Shown: in pieces, positions 19,343 to 28,493 of the stretch
Position numbering within the stretch: position 1 is the first letter of the stretch
Layout: the number at the start of each line of letters is the position of its first letter
DNA from: a bacterium
GTDB taxonomy: Bacteria; Patescibacteriota; Patescibacteriia; UBA2591; DAOWAM01
Length of the DNA stretch: 29,731 nucleotides
NCBI GenBank assembly: GCA_030634585.1
Contig: DAOWAM010000001.1
Span: 1-29,731 of the forward strand
Direction: 5' to 3'
The notes under the pieces: generated by a model
The model's input: the letters and a program-made list of their open reading frames with translations, nothing else
Told to the model about the DNA's origin: nothing
Database searches by the model: none
Program-made: the position numbers and the translations under genes

Positions 19343-20740
19343 TTATAACAACTGATTAATTTTTCTAACCGCTTGATTAATAGATTCTTGATACGGATTA
19401 TTTTTATCATTATACCTTCCAGTTAAAATAGCGTCAATCATTTCAGAAAAGATCTGCTGAGCAGATTGATAATCATTACCTTGATACCATGAGTGACTAG
19501 TCAATAATTGCTGAGCGAACGATCGTAAATCAATATTAATTAATTGTTGTTTAATCAATCCACGCAAAGCAGTCGGTTTTTTTGTTTGATCTAAATAAGA
19601 AGGAACATTTTTAATATCCGTGGCAAATTTAAGAAAACCCCAAGCAACATCAGAGTGTTCTGTTTTTTTAGAAACTGTTTCTATCCAATAGTTAGCATAA
19701 TTCGCCGTTCGTAATGAATCAGCAATCTGTGGTACTGGCGCTAAATCAAAATTTAATTTTGGCGCGCGTGCCTTAATCAACGGTAAATGATAAGAATAAC
19801 CAAAATAGAAAGCTGATTTACCTTGGATAAAGGATTCAAAAGCGTTAGGCAAATTCTGATTCCAGCTATATACTTCTTTGATTGGATTAGCAAAGTCAGT
19901 ATAAAAACGAAGTGCTTCTTGTCCAGGAAAATAAGATTTATTATTTATTAAAGGGGAATTGAAAATTGCTTGTCCTTGTTCATTCATCATTGAAGCACCA
20001 CCTTGTATCATTAATAAAGATAATAAATCAAAATAATTATTAATATTATTACTAGTTCCCAAAGCAACGCCAGATTGGATTATTTTTCCTTGTCCATCTT
20101 CTAGTGTTAATTTTTTTACTTGTTGGGCAAAATCAGTCCAATTGTCTGCCGAATCGGCAATACCAGCATTATTTAATAAATCTCGATTATAATAAAGAAC
20201 TAAATTATCTACTGCTAATGGCAACCCGTAAATCTGATTCTGCCAAAATATATCTTTTTCTACTATATCAATAAAACTTTTTCTAATCTCTAAACGTGTT
20301 AAACCATTTATCTTTCTTATTTCGGTTACTTTTTCTTTTTTAATCGTTCCTTGCTCAAAAGTAAATGGTAATTCCATTACTGCCGGCATCGGTATAATAT
20401 ATTTTCGATAATCAGTCATCCAAGTATTGGGAATAGAAAAAATATCTGGTCCTTTATCTATTGCCCATGCTTCTAATAACGCTTGTGCGTATTCTTCATA
20501 ATAGAATTTTCTGACATTGACCACAACATTAGGATGAACTAAACGAAAATCATTAATAATCTTTCCAAAATCATCTTGATTATCTAAAACAGTCCAATAG
20601 TTAAGTGTAATTGATTCCGATGCCTCTTTTACTTTTTCAGAGGTACAACGGCAACCAAGACCGCTGGTTATTAAAAAAACCGTGATTAAAATCAAGCTAT
20701 AAATCTTAATTTTCATTTTTGGTTTAACTTTTGTTAACAT
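19343..20740 (-). CDS. Extracellular solute-binding lipoprotein (sugar-binding family 1-like)
   Basis: Lipobox-like SGLGC; GPDIF, YGLPLAVDNLVLYYNRDLL, F.QGK.AFYFG, AWGFLKF. Confidence 0.85.
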   Translation of the reverse strand: MLTKVKPKMKIKIYSLILITVFLITSGLGCRCTSEKVKEASESITLNYWTVLDNQDDFGKIINDFRLVHPNVVVNVRKFYYEEYAQALLEAWAIDKGPDIFSIPNTWMTDYRKYIIPMPAVMELPFTFEQGTIKKEKVTEIRKINGLTRLEIRKSFIDIVEKDIFWQNQIYGLPLAVDNLVLYYNRDLLNNAGIADSADNWTDFAQQVKKLTLEDGQGKIIQSGVALGTSNNINNYFDLLSLLMIQGGASMMNEQGQAIFNSPLINNKSYFPGQEALRFYTDFANPIKEVYSWNQNLPNAFESFIQGKSAFYFGYSYHLPLIKARAPKLNFDLAPVPQIADSLRTANYANYWIETVSKKTEHSDVAWGFLKFATDIKNVPSYLDQTKKPTALRGLIKQQLINIDLRSFAQQLLTSHSWYQGNDYQSAQQIFSEMIDAILTGRYNDKNNPYQESINQAVRKINQLL

Positions 20741-20744
20741 ATGA

Positions 20745-21617
20745 TTATAATATTCTTTTTAAATATTGTTTAAACGATTGTTTCATTTCAGACCGTTGTA
20801 AAGCAAAATGACAATTAGCCATTAACCAGCCCAATTTACTACCGCAATCAAATCGTTTACCGGTAAATTGACAAGCATAAACTGGCTGATAAGCGATCGT
20901 TTTTTGTAAAGCGTTAGTAAATCCAAATTCGTCTTTTTGTTGCGATTTGAACTTGGCTAATAATTCAATTACTAATGGGGTAACGATATAACGACCAACT
21001 ACACCTAAGTTAGAAGGAGCCTGCTTAATCGACGGTTTTTCTATAATCCGTGATAATTGATAGAGATTTGGTTTAATCTTTTTTCCCTTGATTATTCCGT
21101 AATGCGAAATTTCTTTTTTGGCTACATGCTGAACGGCAATTACCGAACTATGGTATTGCTGATAAACAGATAGTAATTGCTGTAAACAATTTGGTTGATT
21201 ATTTATTATATCATCGCCAAACAAAATAGCGCAAGATTCATTACCAATTAAATGTTTAGCTAACAAAATAGCATCTCCCGCACCAGCCGGTTCAGGTTGA
21301 CGTAAATAAACAAACTTAGCTAGACGAGAAATTGATTTAATTTGTTTTCCCAGTTTAATTTTTTTCTTTCTTTGTAAATAATATTCTAGTTCAAAGTTAC
21401 GATCAAAATAATCCTCAATTTCTCGTTTTGGTCGACTAGTAATTAAAACGATCTCTTTAATTCCCGCTTGTACAGCCTCTTCAACAATGTGTTGAATTAC
21501 TGGTTGATCAATAATGGGTAACATTTCTTTAGGAATCTCTTTGCTGATTGGTAACCAACGAACACCTAACCCGGCCACCGGAATAATTGCTTTAGTAATT
21601 TTAGATTGATAAGACAT
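20745..21617 (-). CDS. galU: UTP-glucose-1-phosphate uridylyltransferase
   Basis: KAIIPVAGLG.R.LP.SK.IPKEMLPI.D.PVIQ, RQ.EP.G.G.AI, GDD, GRY, RFDCGSKLG. Confidence 0.92.
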   Translation of the reverse strand: MSYQSKITKAIIPVAGLGVRWLPISKEIPKEMLPIIDQPVIQHIVEEAVQAGIKEIVLITSRPKREIEDYFDRNFELEYYLQRKKKIKLGKQIKSISRLAKFVYLRQPEPAGAGDAILLAKHLIGNESCAILFGDDIINNQPNCLQQLLSVYQQYHSSVIAVQHVAKKEISHYGIIKGKKIKPNLYQLSRIIEKPSIKQAPSNLGVVGRYIVTPLVIELLAKFKSQQKDEFGFTNALQKTIAYQPVYACQFTGKRFDCGSKLGWLMANCHFALQRSEMKQSFKQYLKRIL

Positions 21618-21674
21618 TGATAATCAGATTATTTTCTATTATTAATATATTACCACAAGAAATAAAAAAATAAA

Positions 21675-21701
21675 ACCCCTCACCATAATATGGTGAGGGG
21701 T
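21675..21701 (-). terminator. Intrinsic terminator of the 967-aa gene
   Basis: 12-bp stem acccctcaccat / atggtgaggggt, with a T-tract on the minus strand (A-run 21661-21675). Confidence 0.8.
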
Positions 21702-21740
21702 AATTTTCTTGCAATTAAGCAAAAAATTATAAATGAGAAA

Positions 21741-24644
21741 TTACCAATCGAAATAAAAACCGCTACTGAGTCGGTAAAATGACTTTTTCTCGCGCTGATA
21801 AGTTTGCTGATATCTATCCCAGCGGAAACAAAACGGACCACCCAAACGAATAGATATGGAGTATCCTTTTTTAACCAACCATTTATCGCTCATACTTTCA
21901 TTGTCTCCATATAAGCTACCAACATGGTAATAAAGGCTACCGTCTATTTGAAACAGGAGTCCTTGATTCGCTGGACCACAAGCTAGAGAAAATCCAGCCC
22001 AGTTCAATAAAGGAAATCTCAATTCAACATCGAAAGATACCAAACGCGTCCCTCGACGATAATCTGCTCTCTTCTCAGTTTCATTCAACAGAATTATCCT
22101 ATCTTCTGATTCATTAAGAGGATGAAAGACAAATATTCTGGTTGCTAAAGTAGTTCTAGCTCCCAATTGAAAATATTGACGAATATCTCCTTCAAAGTAT
22201 CCCTCTATGTGAATTGTTCGATTCAAACCAATCTTTTGTAACTGAATTAATTCGAATTTTATTTTACTACCGCGCACTCTTTGGCCTCGATAGTCAAGAA
22301 AGCTGCTGTCATGGAAGAAAGCAAATCGATTACTGACAATCAAGCCTTTCAATATGTTGACTGTTGGTTGATTCTGATCGGCTGTATTCACAATGAGTAT
22401 TTTCTTGTGACGCCTAAAATCATAGTCCCTTTTTAAATAGCCAGTCCCTACATCCAATTCAAAACCATTTTCAAAGTCAAGTGGATAAAACAAGCTCACC
22501 ATTACGTCTAAACGGGTGTCTTTAAAAGAAACAATCTTTCCATCTTTCATGGCTGATTTTATCTGGCCATTTAATGATAAGGTATATTTCTTTTCCAATC
22601 TACTTCGAAAATCAAATTTACTAAAGCCAATTATACCCAGAAATCCATATTGGTCAATTGTTCCTTGTGCATCCACGGTTATTGCCTGTTCACCGGTTAC
22701 CGTTGAACAACCAGCAACTGCTACGACCAAATGATCTTCAAAAACTCTTTGCTTCCTCAACACTACCGGATAAAGATATTTGAATACAGGTGTTTCTGTC
22801 TCTACCGCAGATTCTATTGTCCAGCAAGTAGTAGTAGTAATCGCTAGAATATCAATGTCAACCACATCATTCTTAGCAACTGTTGTTAAGTCAACTACCA
22901 ATCTCTTTACTTGATGATTAATCGAACAAAATAAGGTTTGCTCATTTTCCCAATCAATTAATTCACTAACTCCTTGTGTTATATTATCATACACCGTATA
23001 CAACTGATCAGTAGTTAGATCAACTACTTTAATCTGTCGAGAGTTATCAAAATCAATGCTAGTAAAAGCTAATTTACTGTCTTGGGGCGAAATTCGCAAT
23101 TGTTGGATACATTCTCCTTCATTAGACAAATAGATTTCTTTAATCTGATTGTCCTGCAAGCAATAAATCCCTTGTTTACCTTGAACACGATAATTGGAAA
23201 TAAAATAGATTGCGCCATCTTTTCCCATCGTTGGATAACGATTGCAATAGTGATCATCGGTGTGTTTGATAAGTTCTTTCGATCTGAAAGAATAAAGATA
23301 AATATCGCTTATTCCTGATTGACTGGTTCCTTCAAAAAGAATTTCTTCATCATTGACGAAATTGACTGAGCTGATAGTAATGATATTGTCATTTCGTAAA
23401 GTAAATTCTTTCATTAACATTGTTTTCTTTGGCTGACTTGTATCATAAATTCTTAACTCGTCTTTTCCTAAACGAGAAATCACCACTGCCGCCAAATCAT
23501 TTTGTTGGTCAACTGTATTTTGCCAATAACGAATATATCCGCTCTGATCTTCAAACAAATGAAAAATCTTGGTTGAAGAATAAGCAAGAGAAGAGCCTTC
23601 CGTCTTTGGTTCTACGTTAATTACCTCTATCCGTAAACCGTATATTTTATCCCTGGTATAACGAATTATTTTTCCTTGATCATATCTGCTTCCTACTGAC
23701 AAATCAGGTAAATCAACTTTTTCAACCGAGGTATTGTCCGTATGATAAATATCGACAAAAAACCTAAGTTGCAACCATTCTCTCCACCACGTTTGAAGTT
23801 GGTTCAAATCAACACCATACGTTTTCGTATAGTCAAAATCATTGAACATTAATTCAATTAACTTTGCTGTCCCACCAAAATTAGTATCTAGATAGTTCAG
23901 AAAACAAAAACCGAACGCATAAACATCAAAACCGCCAGTATATGCACTAAGATAAGGAATGTCTCCATTGATCACTCTTTGACGTAAATAATTCTGGACT
24001 TCAGCACCTCGCGCCGTATGGACACCAACAAAGTATTTACGAGAAATCAATTCAGCGAATCCTTCAGTAAAATAAAGTGGCATTGCACCAGCAATACTTT
24101 TTCTTCTACCCTGTTGTTTCGCTAATTCCTTTAAAAAAACAAAATGGAAAATATGAACCATCTCATGCGATACAGTACCCTTAAATTCCTCTAGATCACC
24201 AGGATACGGTATGGCCCCTCTTAAACCCGCTCGTTCCATAAAACCTTGTACACCTGGTGGTAAAATTACTTCTACCAATATTCTTTGTGACCGGCCAAAC
24301 CGACTGTGTACGGGATAAAAGCAGAGATTAATTTTTTCTGGTCCCCAGCTCTCAACTAGGTTTGTCTTTGTCGTTGTATTGCCTTGCACATCTTCCACTG
24401 GCCAACTAAAATTAGCAAAAATCTTAGTCGAATATGTTTGATAAACATCTTCGGTAATTTTTGCAAATTCGCCCGACAACCAAGTAAGTTCCTTGGGAAA
24501 ATAAATGTCTGCATGTTCTGTTTTCACCACTCGCCATTCAAACTGATGTTCAATGAATTTATTTCTGAAGCCATAAACATTCACTGGCAAAAAAACAAAT
24601 AAAGAAACGACTGCGATTATTAGAATAACAATAACCTTTCTCAT
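21741..24644 (-). CDS. Secreted multidomain protein: gluzincin (peptidase MA-like) + TolB/PD40-like beta-propeller + Omp85/BamA-TamA-like C-terminal barrel
   Basis: Signal peptide; W.V.KTEH.DIYF; HEMVH plus downstream PLYFTEGFAE; SDIYLY...TDD.Y..RYP...DG.IYF.S propeller repeats; amphipathic strands DIRQYF, ELRFPL; terminal GFYFDW beta-signal-like end; SD AAAGGAGG. Confidence 0.7.
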   Translation of the reverse strand: MRKVIVILIIAVVSLFVFLPVNVYGFRNKFIEHQFEWRVVKTEHADIYFPKELTWLSGEFAKITEDVYQTYSTKIFANFSWPVEDVQGNTTTKTNLVESWGPEKINLCFYPVHSRFGRSQRILVEVILPPGVQGFMERAGLRGAIPYPGDLEEFKGTVSHEMVHIFHFVFLKELAKQQGRRKSIAGAMPLYFTEGFAELISRKYFVGVHTARGAEVQNYLRQRVINGDIPYLSAYTGGFDVYAFGFCFLNYLDTNFGGTAKLIELMFNDFDYTKTYGVDLNQLQTWWREWLQLRFFVDIYHTDNTSVEKVDLPDLSVGSRYDQGKIIRYTRDKIYGLRIEVINVEPKTEGSSLAYSSTKIFHLFEDQSGYIRYWQNTVDQQNDLAAVVISRLGKDELRIYDTSQPKKTMLMKEFTLRNDNIITISSVNFVNDEEILFEGTSQSGISDIYLYSFRSKELIKHTDDHYCNRYPTMGKDGAIYFISNYRVQGKQGIYCLQDNQIKEIYLSNEGECIQQLRISPQDSKLAFTSIDFDNSRQIKVVDLTTDQLYTVYDNITQGVSELIDWENEQTLFCSINHQVKRLVVDLTTVAKNDVVDIDILAITTTTCWTIESAVETETPVFKYLYPVVLRKQRVFEDHLVVAVAGCSTVTGEQAITVDAQGTIDQYGFLGIIGFSKFDFRSRLEKKYTLSLNGQIKSAMKDGKIVSFKDTRLDVMVSLFYPLDFENGFELDVGTGYLKRDYDFRRHKKILIVNTADQNQPTVNILKGLIVSNRFAFFHDSSFLDYRGQRVRGSKIKFELIQLQKIGLNRTIHIEGYFEGDIRQYFQLGARTTLATRIFVFHPLNESEDRIILLNETEKRADYRRGTRLVSFDVELRFPLLNWAGFSLACGPANQGLLFQIDGSLYYHVGSLYGDNESMSDKWLVKKGYSISIRLGGPFCFRWDRYQQTYQREKKSFYRLSSGFYFDW

Positions 24645-24672
24645 CTAAAACCTCCTTTAGATTATTAAAGTT

Positions 24673-24694
24673 TAAAGTTCTTTATTGAACTTTA
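24673..24694. promoter_or_regulatory. Operator-like inverted repeat between promoter and RBS
   Basis: taaagttc-tttatt-gaacttta. Confidence 0.4.
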
Positions 24695-24706
24695 TCAATC
24701 AATAAT

Positions 24707-24735
24707 ATTATAATTTTTTGAATCTTTTTTGTCAA
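24707..24735 (-). promoter_or_regulatory. Consensus sigma70 promoter for the 967-aa gene
   Basis: Exact TTGACA-17 nt-TATAAT on the minus strand. Confidence 0.8.
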
Positions 24736-24783
24736 GCACAAATATTGTATACTGGGATACGTGTAACGTTATTTCAATAAGAT

Positions 24784-24812
24784 TTGACAAGATTATTGAT
24801 TAAGATTAAAAT
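24784..24812 (+). promoter_or_regulatory. Sigma70 promoter for the protease gene
   Basis: TTGACA-17 nt-TAAAAT; AGGAGG at 24832-24837. Confidence 0.75.
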
Positions 24813-24843
24813 AAAGAAAATAAAAAACCAAAGGAGGTATGAA

Positions 24844-25695
24844 ATGAAAAAGTTTAGATTCGTTCTAATTGTTTTATTCTTAGTAATAATCAATTCGACT
24901 ATCGTTTTCGCTCAAATTGACACAGAAACAAATCAAGCTCTATTGCCAGAAATCTTGCCAACAGAAATCATAGAGAGCATTATCCAAAAGATGTCCACAG
25001 ACACAGAAAAAAATCAAGTTCTATCGCCAGAAATCTTGCCGACAGAAATCAGAGAGAGTATTATCCAAAGAATGGTAATGATTTCAGTTATTAATAAACA
25101 GAAAGACGGGGAATTAAAAACTCACTATGGTCAAGGTATTTTGATTCAATCGAATATGATTTTAACAGTTAAACACTTAGTCAATGAGACAGAATTAAAT
25201 AGCCAAACTGTTGTAATGATTTATTTTTACGGAACTGAAAAGACACTTGTGTTGCGCAAAAAAGACACGACTTATCATTCAAGCGCAAACATTGATTCGA
25301 CGATTATCAAGCTAGATAAGCTGACCAAAAGAGAAAAAAGCACGTTACCACAAGTTGAGCCAATTAAGTTCTCTACTGTCCAGCCAACGGAAACAGTTTT
25401 TATGCCATGTTTTTTACGTCATCAATCGGATGATGCTGAGAGATCATTCTGGGTAAAATTATTTTTTAGCGGAACGATTGTTAATACAGTTCTTACTAAT
25501 AAAGATTATCTCTATATTAATATTCCCGCTTCGCAGGGTATTTCTGGTTCAGGTGTCTTTAACAAAAAGGGACAATTAACTGGCTTGGCTTTCGCTTATT
25601 TTCAAATAAATCCTGATATTCGAGTAGCTGTGGCAATTAATAATTTCCGCGTTGAGCAATTTTTAAAAACAATTAGAATAAAGGATGGGGATTAA
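24844..25695 (+). CDS. Secreted trypsin-like (S1) serine protease
   Basis: Signal peptide MKKFRF...VFA; triad-like ILTVKHLV (H), IDSTIIKL (D), QGISGSGVFN (S); ATG 6 nt after AGGAGG. Confidence 0.75.
   Translation: MKKFRFVLIVLFLVIINSTIVFAQIDTETNQALLPEILPTEIIESIIQKMSTDTEKNQVLSPEILPTEIRESIIQRMVMISVINKQKDGELKTHYGQGILIQSNMILTVKHLVNETELNSQTVVMIYFYGTEKTLVLRKKDTTYHSSANIDSTIIKLDKLTKREKSTLPQVEPIKFSTVQPTETVFMPCFLRHQSDDAERSFWVKLFFSGTIVNTVLTNKDYLYINIPASQGISGSGVFNKKGQLTGLAFAYFQINPDIRVAVAINNFRVEQFLKTIRIKDGD
24919..25074 (+). repeat. Tandem duplication with 81-bp period inside the protease pro-region
   Basis: Copies start at 24919 and 25000; DTETNQALLPEILPTEIIESIIQKM vs DTEKNQVLSPEILPTEIRESIIQRM. Confidence 0.93.
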
Positions 25696-25706
25696 AACTG
25701 AAAAAC

Positions 25707-25746
25707 AAATAGGGGAATGACAACAGTCAATCCCCTATTTTATTTT
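25707..25746. terminator. Terminator between convergent protease and LAGLIDADG genes
   Basis: aaatagggga a tgac-aaca-gtca a tcccctattt, then T-rich. Confidence 0.75.
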
Positions 25747-25799
25747 ACAAATTATTTAACGGCGCTTATTCATATTTCATTAGATAGCAAATTACTAAA

Positions 25800-26210
25800 T
25801 TATTTTAAATATGAAATATAATGATATTGCCAGTTTTCTTTTTCCTTAAGAAATTTTTGTTTCCATTGTTCAAATTGTTTCTTTTTACTGCCGAATAATC
25901 TATTGTTAAAAAAGGGAATGATAATCTGTTCAATTGTTCGTCGTTTACGGACGATTAATAACGAAAAACTTTGTTTTCCTGTCTGATATAGATGAATTGT
26001 TTCGGCAAGTCCTAAATGTTGTTTAATTATCCAAAGAACTTCTTGATTATCACTCTTTACTTTAATCTGAAAAACGGCAATCTTTTGTCGTTGTTTCCGT
26101 AGACTACTAACTTGGGTAACCCAAAGAAAAGATCCTATTCCACAAATCAATCCATCAACAAAGTCAGACGAAACTCGAGGAATTGAAATAGCATTATTTA
26201 ACTTAGTCAT
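25800..26210 (-). CDS. Stand-alone single-domain LAGLIDADG endonuclease-like protein, degenerate active site
   Basis: FVDGLICGIGSF helix, F.I.....N..VL..IK..LG, IIPFF...L.G.K...F..W pattern typical of LAGLIDADG_1. Confidence 0.7.
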   Translation of the reverse strand: MTKLNNAISIPRVSSDFVDGLICGIGSFLWVTQVSSLRKQRQKIAVFQIKVKSDNQEVLWIIKQHLGLAETIHLYQTGKQSFSLLIVRKRRTIEQIIIPFFNNRLFGSKKKQFEQWKQKFLKEKENWQYHYISYLK

Positions 26211-26750
26211 TTTTGTTATGTTTTAATAAATATGATATTAATAGAAACATCTGATAGATATGTTTACTATTAAGTTAGATTAATTAGATCCCTAAATCTT
26301 TTTTAATTTAGTATTATCTTGCTTCTGTATTAAGATTATTTTATAATTTTGATACCTTTTGTCTTTATTGCTTAATTTACAATATTTTATTGATAAGATA
26401 TCCTAATATTATTTTATCAATTATTTTTAAATTAAGCAAATAGTTATCCACCGTCACTATTCTATTTAAACAATGTGGCTATTTTTTAAGATACTTTTTT
26501 ATTTTCTTTATCTACGCCCCTGTAAAGATTCCAATGAAACTTAAATTATGAAATTTAAAAATAATAAAAAATATTGATCCTATATTGTGTTTAGAAAGAT
26601 GCTCGAAAACAATTTAAATAATTAGCGCTAATTAAATAGTTAGAATAAATAATTTGTTAATTTAGATTATTAATTTTTGATTATTTAAAAAAGACGAATT
26701 AATCAATCAAAATGCTTTTCTTTTGAAAATACTTTCTACATTATTAATTT

Positions 26751-26766
26751 TGTTCCACGTGGAACA
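26751..26766. promoter_or_regulatory. parS: parS centromere-like site (ParB/Spo0J binding)
   Basis: Perfect 16-bp palindrome TGTTCCACGTGGAACA matching the widespread consensus tGTTNCACGTGNAACa. Confidence 0.88.
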
Positions 26767-26853
26767 TTCTGATACCAGTGGGAACATACGTGCCACTTTC
26801 TAAGGTAAAAATAGAGAATGAATTTCTTCAATTAATTATTTAGCTGGATTATT

Positions 26854-27441
26854 TTATCTTACCTTATTCTTTTTAGAAAGACTAAACAAACAACCACAAT
26901 ATTTTTGTCGGTGAAGTCCTAATTGATGTGATAGCACAATACTCCTTTGTTTAGCATCTTGTGGATTAACCGAAAATTGATAGAAATTTATTTTATATTG
27001 TTTAGTTAGCTCTTGACCAATTTGTTTTATTACTGAAACATTTTTATATAAACTGACACTTAGAGTACTAGAGAAATAATCAAAATGGTGTTGTTGCGCA
27101 TATTGTACGGTGGATCGCAAACGAATCTGAAAACAAACAGAACAACGTTCGCTATTTTCTAAATAACTTACCGGTGGGCGAGGTAAAGATTGTTGAATTT
27201 CTTTAAACCATTTTTCTGATTGATAATCCGGTATAATCAATGCTAATTGATAAAAATCCGCTATTTGCTTCATCGAGTCTAATCGCTGTTGATATTCTTC
27301 AATTGGTTGGATATTAGGATTAAAATAGTACAAAACCAATTGCTCTCGCTGAAACAATTGTTTTTTTAATAGATTTTCGACCAGTGGCGCCGTACAAGGC
27401 GCGCAACAACAATGAAGAAGTAATTTCATATTTCGCAACAA
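26854..27441 (-). CDS. queH: Epoxyqueuosine reductase QueH (ATG at 27429 also possible)
   Basis: KLLLHCCCAPC, FNPNIQP..EY..R, RC..CF..RL, STL.VS..K, RQKYCGCLFS. Confidence 0.92.
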   Translation of the reverse strand: MLRNMKLLLHCCCAPCTAPLVENLLKKQLFQREQLVLYYFNPNIQPIEEYQQRLDSMKQIADFYQLALIIPDYQSEKWFKEIQQSLPRPPVSYLENSERCSVCFQIRLRSTVQYAQQHHFDYFSSTLSVSLYKNVSVIKQIGQELTKQYKINFYQFSVNPQDAKQRSIVLSHQLGLHRQKYCGCLFSLSKKNKVR

Positions 27442-27461
27442 ATTAAAATAAATTATTTTTC

Positions 27462-28493
27462 TTAAATAATTAACATCGCGTCACCGAATGAATAGAACCG
27501 ATATTTGTGTTTAATTGCTTGTTGATAAGCTTGTTTAATCAATTTTTGCCCAGCAAAAGCCATTACCAACATCAATAAAGTAGATTTGGGCAGATGAAAA
27601 TTAGTAATTAATCCATCAATAAAACGAAATTGATAGCCGGGATAAATAAATAGGTCTATTTCATTTTGTTGTGGAGACAATTTTCCTTGTTGATCACTAA
27701 AAAACTCTAATACTCGGGTAGAAGTGGTTCCTACCGAAATTATTCGTTTATTCTGTTGTTTGGCTTGATTTAATCTTTGTGCTACTTGAGAAGTTAATTC
27801 CGCCCATTCGCTATGTATCTGATGTTGTTCAATTTCGTCTTCTCGTACTGGTTGAAAAGTGCCCAAGCCTACGTGTAAAGTAACAAATTGGGACTGAATT
27901 CTCTTCTTTTTCAATCGATTAAATAATTCTGGCGTAAAATGAAGACCGGCCGTTGGTGCGGCAACTGAACCATCCGTTTTAGCATAAATAGTCTGATAAT
28001 CAACTAAATTAGATAATTGCTTAATATAAGGGGGCGTAGGCGCAATACCAACCCGTCTAATTGCTTGATCTAGTGTTTTTCCTTGTAAATTAAAAGTTAC
28101 TTGCCATGCGCCTTTATCTAATTTTTTGCTTATTTGCGCTGTTAAATCTACTTTTTGATTAGAAAAAATCAATTTTTGACCATTTTTTCCTTGTTTTACT
28201 AATGCTGACCAATTTTGCTGATCAATTTGTCTTAATAACAAGACTTCCGCCTTTCCGCCAGTTTGTTTATGTCCAATCAAGCGCGCCGGAATAACTTTTG
28301 AATTATTTAGTACCAAAATATCATTGCTCGTTAAATATTTAGGTAAATGATAAAAAAAATCGTGTTGAATAGTCTGTGCTTGTCGATCAACAATCATTAA
28401 ACGAGAATGGTCCCGTGGTTTAATCGGCTGTTGAGCAATTAGTTCTTTTGGCAAATGATAATCAAATTTGTTTAATTTCATAATAATTGACAT
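27462..28493 (-). CDS. queA: S-adenosylmethionine:tRNA ribosyltransferase-isomerase (ATG at 28481 also possible)
   Basis: FDYHLP.ELIAQ.P, SRLM, PPYIK, YQTIYA, GSVAAPTAGLHFT, TLHVGLGTF, TNFHLPKSTL, YRFYSFGDAMLI. Confidence 0.97.
   Translation of the reverse strand: MSIIMKLNKFDYHLPKELIAQQPIKPRDHSRLMIVDRQAQTIQHDFFYHLPKYLTSNDILVLNNSKVIPARLIGHKQTGGKAEVLLLRQIDQQNWSALVKQGKNGQKLIFSNQKVDLTAQISKKLDKGAWQVTFNLQGKTLDQAIRRVGIAPTPPYIKQLSNLVDYQTIYAKTDGSVAAPTAGLHFTPELFNRLKKKRIQSQFVTLHVGLGTFQPVREDEIEQHQIHSEWAELTSQVAQRLNQAKQQNKRIISVGTTSTRVLEFFSDQQGKLSPQQNEIDLFIYPGYQFRFIDGLITNFHLPKSTLLMLVMAFAGQKLIKQAYQQAIKHKYRFYSFGDAMLII

Follow-up and report, generated by a model that had tools for sequence, protein, structure and literature searches.

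A divergent WD40-Omp85 protein with a predicted zinc peptidase head and BamA-type barrel in a patescibacterial genome in which the tested outer-membrane genes were not found

The contig DAOWAM010000001.1 (assembly GCA_030634585.1) of a bacterium assigned to the Patescibacteriota, a lineage of the candidate phyla radiation (CPR), was analyzed over its entire 29.7 kb (29,731 nucleotides), and this whole stretch is referred to as the window. It carries, on the reverse strand, a gene referred to here as the barrel-protease gene, the product of which is a divergent member of the WD40-Omp85 subfamily, an architecture that is already known. An earlier note made from the letters alone had described in this open reading frame (ORF) a signal peptide, the zinc-site motifs HEMVH and EGFAE, propeller repeats, an ELRFPL strand and a terminal aromatic residue. 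The ORF was confirmed as described, and every one of the named features was present in its 967 amino acids (aa).

The barrel-protease gene and its product

The features of the gene and protein, with the evidence on which each is placed, are as follows.

21741..24644, reverse strand: whole coding sequence, 967 aa plus stop codon, an uninterrupted ORF (sequence, AlphaFold2 fold)
24707..24735, reverse strand: promoter-like site TTGACA-17-TATAAT, matching 12/12 consensus positions, 5' of the barrel-protease gene
24570..24644, reverse strand: predicted Sec-type signal peptide, aa 1-25 (sequence; AlphaFold2 helix at aa 2-17, then a low-confidence linker)
23730..24548, reverse strand: putative gluzincin (MA-clan) zinc peptidase domain, aa ~33-305, mainly helical (AlphaFold2 fold, profile matches)
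24153..24167, reverse strand: HEMVH, zinc-binding/catalytic motif, aa 160-164 (sequence, alignment)
24051..24065, reverse strand: EGFAE, aa 194-198, with E194 the presumed third zinc ligand (sequence, alignment)
22881..23717, reverse strand: TolB/PD40-like beta-propeller, aa ~310-588 (structure match to TolB)
22725..22880, reverse strand: linker, aa 589-640, of which aa 631-640 are of low confidence (AlphaFold2, control fold)
21744..22724, reverse strand: Omp85-type beta-barrel, aa ~641-967, or from ~625 in the control model (fold, profile homology)
22008..22025, reverse strand: ELRFPL, aa 874-879, opening the strand next after a loop-6-like loop (aa 843-866) (sequence, alignment)
21744..21767, reverse strand: C-terminal SSGFYFDW, aa 960-967 (sequence)
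21675..21701, reverse strand: hairpin resembling an intrinsic terminator, with a stem of 12 bp (7 of them G-C) and a T run after it, 40 nt past the stop codon

A ribosome-binding site, AAAGGAGG, stands immediately 5' of the ATG and, with a consensus promoter-like site and a terminator-like hairpin of its own, the gene looks to be expressed. The N-terminus of the protein is the hydrophobic signal sequence MRKVIVILIIAVVSLFVFLPVNVYG, which closes in VNVYG and is followed by F, and cleavage is likely after VYG. Residues H160, E161, H164, E194, G195, E874 and R876 were invariant in an alignment of 74 family sequences. The bacterial beta-signal has the pattern polar-x-G-x-x-aromatic-x-aromatic, to which the C-terminal SSGFYFDW presumably conforms, and F, Y or W was the last residue in 10 of 11 proteins of the CPR clade described below.

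The protein has both the HExxH motif and the downstream glutamate that mark gluzincins of the MA clan. The N-terminal family profile had weak matches to M9 collagenases (ColT, ColH and ColG) in their catalytic domains (E 6.5e-5 to 1e-3), and to M1 aminopeptidases as well, results with which a gluzincin using E194 as third zinc ligand would fit. E194 lies 30 residues past H164 and its assignment is presumed from the spacing found in gluzincins. The head is thus a candidate zinc-dependent peptidase.

Standard domain models were silent. No Pfam model scored above threshold on the window protein, the sole match being DUF5700 at 16.4 bits (threshold 25), so that PF01103, PD40 and Peptidase_MA, which the earlier note had put forward as the profiles to use, gave no match; NCBIfam returned only weak flagellinolysin-HExxH and TolB-propeller matches. 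The three-domain reading could therefore not have been reached by domain scans alone. An exhaustive phmmer search retrieved 552 relatives, many of them full-length, including P0019, which aligned over aa 5-949 (E 1e-26). Within a 42-member sample of these relatives Pfam recognized PD40 in 26, Peptidase_MA_2 (PF13485) in 21 and Omp85 in 17. In 11 members of the CPR clade no Pfam model at all exceeded threshold; PF01103 gave no match in any of them, and PF13485 was recorded in one of the 11, at an E-value of 0.0055 only.

Fold, family membership and the altered barrel

The structure predicted by AlphaFold2 from the 74-sequence alignment had a mean predicted local distance difference test score (pLDDT) of 84.4 and a predicted template modeling score (pTM) of 0.87. 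The model comprises, in order, a helical peptidase head, a beta-propeller, a linker and a barrel of 15-16 long antiparallel strands as assigned by DSSP. The propeller (aa 310-588) matched TolB (2w8b_A) with a Z-score of 22.1 and a root-mean-square deviation of 3.0 over 239 aligned residues. The region aa 626-967 matched the BamA barrel of D. radiodurans (8xnb_A) with a Z-score of 20.7 over 303 aligned residues, and the model barrel matched residues 423-806 of E. coli BamA (Z ~19), Sam50 (Z 19.5) and TamA (Z 18.3). Foldseek matched BamA barrels with a probability of 1.0 and a template modeling (TM) score of ~0.5, normalized to barrel-only chains. Since the main alignment included diderm sequences, a control fold was computed from 18 CPR-type rows only; it reproduced the three domains and 16 strands (pLDDT 74.1, pTM 0.74) as well as the matches to BamA (Z 20.4) and TolB (Z 22.7). 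No POTRA fold was present in aa 589-640 of either model. The strand count and the Foldseek comparison called for in the earlier note thus returned a 15-16-strand barrel and a match to BamA, and the C-terminal domain is predicted to be a 16-stranded barrel of the BamA fold. The whole-chain model aligned over 880 residues (TM 0.80) with ESM Atlas clusters containing PD40, Omp85 and Peptidase_MA_2, chiefly from Ignavibacteriota, Acidobacteriota, Bacteroidota, Fidelibacterota and Gemmatimonadota.

Proteins of this architecture were described as 'WD40-Omp85', one of ten subfamilies of the Omp85/TpsB superfamily, with a TolB-like propeller, without POTRA by definition, and with the function left open (Heinz & Lithgow 2014, PMC4104836). 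The statement in the earlier note that such a fusion occurs in diderm phyla is borne out by this subfamily, of which diderm-type examples (P0003, P0019, P0021 and loci L007-L060) were found in Ignavibacteriota, Zixibacteria, Bacteroidota, Fidelibacterota, Eisenbacteria and Acidobacteriota. Its proposal of a new system gives way to a divergent clade within the described subfamily (PMC4104836). A maximum-likelihood tree of 40 full-length proteins resolved two clades, CPR-type and diderm-type, each with 100% support in the Shimodaira-Hasegawa-like approximate likelihood ratio test. The diderm clade contained Zixibacteria, Ignavibacteriota, Bacteroidota, Fidelibacterota, Eisenbacteria and Aminicenantes. 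The CPR-type clade consisted of 18 rows including the window protein, on a long branch (1.63), and its titled members were 'Patescibacteria group bacterium' (UBA4787, B18T3L11, H43-bin076_1), 'Candidatus Saccharibacteria', 'bacterium AUK207' and two metagenome-assembled genomes (MAGs) titled 'Gammaproteobacteria'. The barrel was full-length in every CPR-type member. When a barrel tree was rooted with a canonical Omp85 outgroup the two clades were sisters, on long branches and with modest support (87), a placement that leaves the tree silent on inheritance versus transfer, or its direction.

Two loci bear on the limits of the family. A 1,336-aa ORF in the small-genome CPR order of G455 (L098/L101, G553:C1:341908-345393, reverse strand, on a contig no shorter than 345 kb) matched the CPR-type profile both in its peptidase part and in the final strands of the barrel, indicating that longer and more divergent versions of the family exist. 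The genome titled 'Candidatus Saccharimonadales bacterium SMAG_U14664' (L055/G456, DATKKS010000030.1) is 3.2 Mb in size with seven PF01103 matches, one or more of them BamA-like; it is not a CPR genome despite its title, and its WD40-Omp85 copy is diderm-type.

Homology of the CPR-type barrel was examined with a clean diderm barrel profile, from which rows P0025, P0028, P0032 and P0051 were left out since they are without RG(Y/F) and cluster with CPR-type sequences. The CPR barrel profile matched the clean diderm profile over 293 columns with a probability of 99.5% (E 2.3e-23), and the clean diderm profile aligned with aa 706-960 of the window protein (E 9.3e-20). The diderm profile in turn matched BamA of F. 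nucleatum (E 7.2e-13) and E. coli BamA barrels (1.4e-8). The CPR barrel profile had no match among PDB sequences, so it is tied to BamA only by way of the diderm clade or by the fold. Fold and profile homology together support the Omp85-type barrel named in the earlier note.

In BamA, loop 6 is locked within the barrel by a contact between Arg and Asp, on which Omp85 function depends. The loop-6 motif [VLIMF]RG[YFW] was present in 25 of 27 diderm-type barrels versus none of 15 CPR-type barrels, and the loop-6 Arg and the Asp of the strand-13 'FxDxG', both invariant in the diderm set, were both replaced in the CPR-type set, the window protein reading DGSLYYHVGS in place of the lock residues. 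The failure of the earlier note to recognize (V/L)RG(Y/F) thus reflects a property of the window protein and of all 15 CPR-type barrels. The joint loss of the Arg and the Asp suggests that the job of the barrel has changed.

The lipid-facing surface was compared between the clades with strand positions taken from the predicted model and the outward face defined by the diderm clade. The propeller, a soluble domain, served as control. Fractions of residues are given below.

Barrel, outward face, hydrophobic/charged: CPR-type 0.62/0.13; diderm-type 0.60/0.15
Barrel, inward face, hydrophobic: CPR-type 0.38; diderm-type 0.35
Propeller control, more hydrophobic face, hydrophobic/charged: CPR-type 0.59/0.20; diderm-type 0.57/0.14
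Propeller control, less hydrophobic face, hydrophobic/charged: CPR-type 0.53/0.18; diderm-type 0.48/0.23

The contrast between faces was much smaller in the soluble propeller than in the barrel. Given this contrast and the equal outward hydrophobicity, the barrels of CPR-type and diderm-type proteins appear to meet the same kind of surroundings.

What is new here is the sister clade in Patescibacteria, which has lost the loop-6/strand-13 lock, is invisible to Pfam and occurs in genomes without the tested outer-membrane genes. A literature search found no paper on Omp85 proteins in CPR bacteria and no functional study of WD40-Omp85 proteins of either clade.

Host genome, envelope genes and gene neighborhood

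The window genome is 606 kb in 92 contigs, with 88.9% completeness and 0.9% contamination. Composition was even along the window, and the codon usage of the barrel-protease gene was slightly off, with a correlation (r) of 0.815 and a G+C content at third codon positions (GC3) of 0.296 versus 0.20-0.26 for most neighbors. Contigs assembled per run by Logan from the metagenomes of four cold-seep samples, all of one study (runs X1 to X4), spanned both gene junctions with an even depth of 6-8. The 3' junction was crossed by contigs of X2 (19981-22133) and X3 (21010-22116), and the 5' junction by contigs of X1 (22348-26941), X3 (23921-27500) and X4 (24154-25151). The separate NCBI assembly GCA_023136575.1 contains a C-terminal fragment with 94% identity, after which come the same genes for an NTP-transferase, a solute-binding protein and pilins. 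The contig is therefore not chimeric at 21620-21740 or 24650-24840, the two places where the earlier note had asked whether the assembly held. Over 205 barrel codons compared between the window and GCA_023136575.1, the ratio of nonsynonymous to synonymous substitution rates (dN/dS) was 0.15 at a dS of 0.18. The gene is native to its genome and under purifying selection. The suggestion that it was horizontally acquired, in the sense of a recent event, is not upheld, since the CPR-type clade is deep and sister to, not inside, the diderm clade, composition is near that of the host genome, and selection is purifying.

Absence of ribosomal protein L30 is a classic CPR trait. L30 was found in none of 55 genomes of the order of the window genome versus 13 of 14 controls, and relatives in the same order are titled 'Patescibacteria group bacterium'. 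With its 606 kb, an order without L30 and no tested marker of outer-membrane biogenesis, the host genome is CPR-like, as the earlier note had supposed. Full-length homologs were present in eight of the 55 species genomes of the order, across six families, and homologs occur on contigs of 69-185 kb in genomes of 0.6-0.8 Mb. In the seven genomes of the order other than that of the window, homologs have housekeeping genes as neighbors, the contigs reaching 185 kb; in the 99%-complete genome G017 (4 contigs), one of them, the homolog lies next to lepA, rplS and trxB on a contig of 185 kb. Outside the order a full-length copy was found in G454 (0.6 Mb) and in G455 (0.7 Mb, beside secA), and none was found among 400 genomes sampled evenly over the phylum. 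The patchy distribution indicates that the protein is not a core envelope component. Sequences CAZMTM010000024.1 (L002) and CAZVCF010000042.1 (L020) are titled 'uncultured Gammaproteobacteria bacterium' at NCBI and are placed by GTDB in the order of the window genome; the NCBI labels look wrong.

Omp85 barrels are regarded as a hallmark of outer membranes, those of mitochondria and plastids as well as of diderm bacteria, and assembly of such a barrel normally needs an Omp85 insertase already in place. CPR bacteria are described as single-membraned. A search of the window genome found none of PF01103, LpxC, LptD, TolC, OmpH, FadL or Porin_4, no paralog of the barrel by the clade hidden Markov model and no sortase, and a crude search for secreted ORFs that end in an aromatic residue gave no convincing candidate. 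LpxC and secretin were each found in none of the 55 genomes of the order. PF01103 was found in one of the 55, on a 2.6-kb contig carrying the PlpD-like gene of G003, and the order contains no other credible Omp85. The search for outer-membrane machinery therefore agrees with the earlier note in that none of the tested markers, LptD, LpxC, PF01103 and TolC among them, was seen in the genome; these absences and the published descriptions of CPR cells together point to a single-membrane envelope.

The PlpD-like gene (G003:C25:141-2312, reverse strand; L094/L095) encodes 723 aa with Patatin, POTRA and Omp85 domains (PF01103, 37 bits), as in type Vd secretion. G003 belongs to the same order, is ~0.8 Mb and 100% complete, and the G+C content of 0.29-0.32 is CPR-like. 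The gene was considered as support for outer-membrane proteins in the order and set aside as not usable, the binning of its 2,642-bp contig being uncheckable.

The neighbors of the barrel-protease gene in the window are typical of CPR genomes, with type IV secretion system (T4SS)-type pilins, a GH57/GlgA cluster and QueA/QueH. No conserved operon partner was common to the window and the loci of relatives. The divergently transcribed neighbor (24784-25695, forward strand) encodes a trypsin-like (Trypsin_2) protease that was not conserved beside homologs elsewhere. A promoter-like site, TTGACA-17-TAAAAT (11/12), lies at 24784-24812, within this ORF as listed from TTG, so the real start of the Trypsin_2 gene is probably further downstream. 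In four CPR genomes a charged, helical-looking ORF of ~190 aa (~430 aa in two of them) directly follows the homolog (L002:7001-7585, L004:7686-8249, L080:4932-6224 and L081:73-1320). It had no signal peptide and no Pfam match, looks cytoplasmic, and was absent from the window genome by tblastn. A free-standing LAGLIDADG homing-endonuclease ORF of 136 aa (25800-26210, reverse strand) adjoins an AT-rich gap at 26211-26853; since Rfam revealed no rRNA or intron within the window, no rRNA intron encloses the ORF in this case. Base differences among the contigs of the four runs were clustered in two stretches, 20633-20669, close to where the solute-binding-protein gene has its 5' end, and 21688-21816, at the 3' end of the barrel-protease gene. 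In the latter cluster only run X3 differs, its changes including one deleted and one inserted nucleotide in the region of the terminator. The clustering of differences between runs indicates co-existing strains.

Placement of the barrel and comparison with known systems

The interpretation that we favor, and hold to be somewhat better than an even proposition, is that the window protein is a Sec-exported, single-chain surface protease of the CPR-type WD40-Omp85 sister clade, anchored in lipid by a POTRA-less 16-stranded barrel. After export the barrel would fold into a lipid layer and serve as an anchor, a role suggested by lipid-facing strands as hydrophobic as those of the diderm homologs. 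The anchor would keep a propeller-gated peptidase outside the cytoplasm, where it may cut envelope or surface proteins or peptides. Because the loop-6 RG(Y/F) and strand-13 Asp are lost, the barrel is probably no longer a lid-locked insertase like BamA and would act as anchor or pore only.

As for the layer involved, the chance that the barrel resides outside the cytoplasmic membrane of its own cell is put at about even when both options of that kind are taken together. One is the outer membrane of a diderm host at the site of epibiont contact, a tentative placement with odds well short of even; the other is an unrecognized outer layer of the CPR cell itself, which is unlikely. Residence in the cell's own membrane, or in no membrane at all, is in each case equally unlikely. 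The C-terminal SSGFYFDW fits the beta-signal, so a host's machinery for beta-barrel assembly (BAM) could in principle recognize the barrel. The more specific proposal, close to that of the earlier note, is that a CPR epibiont installs a barrel made without BAM of its own in the outer membrane of a host, possibly by way of the host BAM, or in an unseen outer layer of its own. It is offered as a speculative possibility that we doubt more than we believe.

Several points weigh against the favored interpretation and these placements. With a completeness of 88.9% the absences from the window genome are not proof, and near-complete relatives (G017) back them; Pfam misses divergent CPR proteins, and a hidden divergent insertase or further barrels are possible. 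The gene is patchy, in eight of 55 genomes of the order and at full length in none of 400 sampled across the phylum. In the lipid-face comparison strand parity was assigned by way of a multiple alignment and a predicted model, and strand ends that protrude from a membrane dilute the signal. To our knowledge, there is no route that puts a monomeric Omp85 barrel into the membrane of another cell or into a cytoplasmic membrane, which weighs against the host-membrane option. Localization, activity and expression are all deduced from sequence and predicted structure.

If an outer lipid layer of the cell's own, or its cytoplasmic membrane, held the barrel, the protein could be a quality-control or turnover protease of the envelope that faces the wall space and has no role toward a host. 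Preserved lipid-facing hydrophobicity, the retained beta-signal-like C-terminus, an inter-domain arrangement as in diderm homologs (TM 0.80) and the PlpD-like gene binned with another genome of the order would all suit this explanation. It is nonetheless unlikely, as LpxC, LptD, TolC, secretin, OmpH, FadL and Porin_4 were not found in the genome, nor were those tested across the order found there, the genome has no detected barrel paralog, occurrence in only eight of 55 genomes is odd for an envelope-building component, and the PlpD-like gene lies on the 2.6-kb contig for which binning is uncheckable. The loss of RG(Y/F) and the strand-13 Asp from all 15 CPR-type sequences, the long branch of the window protein (1.63), the blindness of the Pfam Omp85 model to the domain and the failure to find insertion machinery would be expected of a barrel that has ceased to be a membrane domain and serves as a scaffold, either soluble or associated with the wall, or is decaying as a remnant of a diderm past, with only the peptidase and propeller of importance. 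The retained hydrophobic face, equal to that of the diderm clade with an in/out contrast well above that of the soluble propeller, and a dN/dS of 0.15 on the barrel itself weigh against a relic, as do a full-length barrel in every CPR-type member and the terminal aromatic residue in 10 of 11, and we regard this explanation as rather improbable.

A type V-like autotransporter resembling PlpD, in which the barrel exports the peptidase and propeller over a membrane and releases or displays them, has the same order of an N-terminal enzyme and a C-terminal Omp85 barrel, finds a true PlpD-like gene binned in a sister genome, and is an option raised for enzyme-Omp85 fusions by Heinz & Lithgow (PMC4104836). 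It is very improbable here: no POTRA lies between passenger and barrel, a 560-residue passenger of peptidase and closed propeller would be hard to thread, the loop-6 motif required by Omp85 transporters is lost, and a second membrane to cross is not evident from the genome. An artefact, whether a contaminating diderm contig, a chimeric assembly or a genome that is truly diderm, is close to refuted. Foreign contigs can occur in MAG bins, the gene has a slightly raised G+C content (0.364; GC3 0.296) and a codon correlation (0.815) toward the bottom of the range for the window's long genes, and two relatives are labeled 'Gammaproteobacteria' by NCBI. However, the gene is mid-contig among the CPR-typical pilin, GH57/GlgA and QueA/QueH genes, the junctions are bridged both by contigs of four samples and by an independent assembly, the two 'Gammaproteobacteria' MAGs (G011, G016) are placed by GTDB in the order of the window genome, that order is without L30 or the tested outer-membrane markers, and the homologs lie on 69-185-kb contigs of 0.6-0.8-Mb genomes.

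A full-length Omp85 barrel under selection in supposedly single-membraned bacteria, without any tested outer-membrane gene, raises questions on the true architecture of the CPR envelope and on how tiny epibionts engage their hosts, and bears on the debate over a diderm ancestry of CPR bacteria. Surveys that score CPR genomes as free of Omp85 would overlook the clade, which standard domain models miss. If the barrel were indeed to reside in a host membrane or in an unseen layer, either the confinement of Omp85 proteins to the outer membrane of the cell that makes them or the view of CPR bacteria as strictly monoderm would be overturned. For specialists the surprise is the selected Omp85 barrel in CPR bacteria; the architecture itself is not new and the mechanism is inferred.

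Among known systems the diderm WD40-Omp85 proteins are the closest, with the same three domains in the same order, a whole-chain TM score of 0.80, homology over the whole barrel, and invariant zinc-site residues and an E-x-R-F-P strand motif common to both clades. The CPR-type proteins differ in being long-branched and undetected by Pfam, in having neither the loop-6 RG(Y/F) nor the strand-13 Asp, and in occurring in genomes without outer-membrane biogenesis genes. With BamA, TamA and Sam50 (8xnb, 4n75, 8us4, 7btw) the window protein shares the predicted 16-stranded barrel (Z 18-21 over the whole barrel), the conserved Glu on the strand after loop 6 and the aromatic C-terminus, but it is without POTRA, RG(Y/F) lid-lock or partner lipoproteins, and it is unlikely to be an insertase. 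PlpD (type Vd, patatin-POTRA-Omp85) likewise carries a hydrolytic enzyme N-terminal to an Omp85 barrel; its passenger is a lipase and it has POTRA, whereas the window protein has a putative peptidase and a propeller with no POTRA. The propeller matches that of TolB (Z 22) and recalls the propeller-gated peptidases tricorn, DPP-IV and S9 types, an analogy from which gating by the propeller may be supposed, although TolB is a soluble periplasmic component of Tol-Pal with no peptidase or barrel. The head resembles M9 collagenase and gluzincin domains in its HExxH and downstream Glu, a weak similarity and not membership. A functional analog is offered by BepA, the metalloprotease associated with BAM, although it belongs to M48, contains TPR repeats and is a separate protein.

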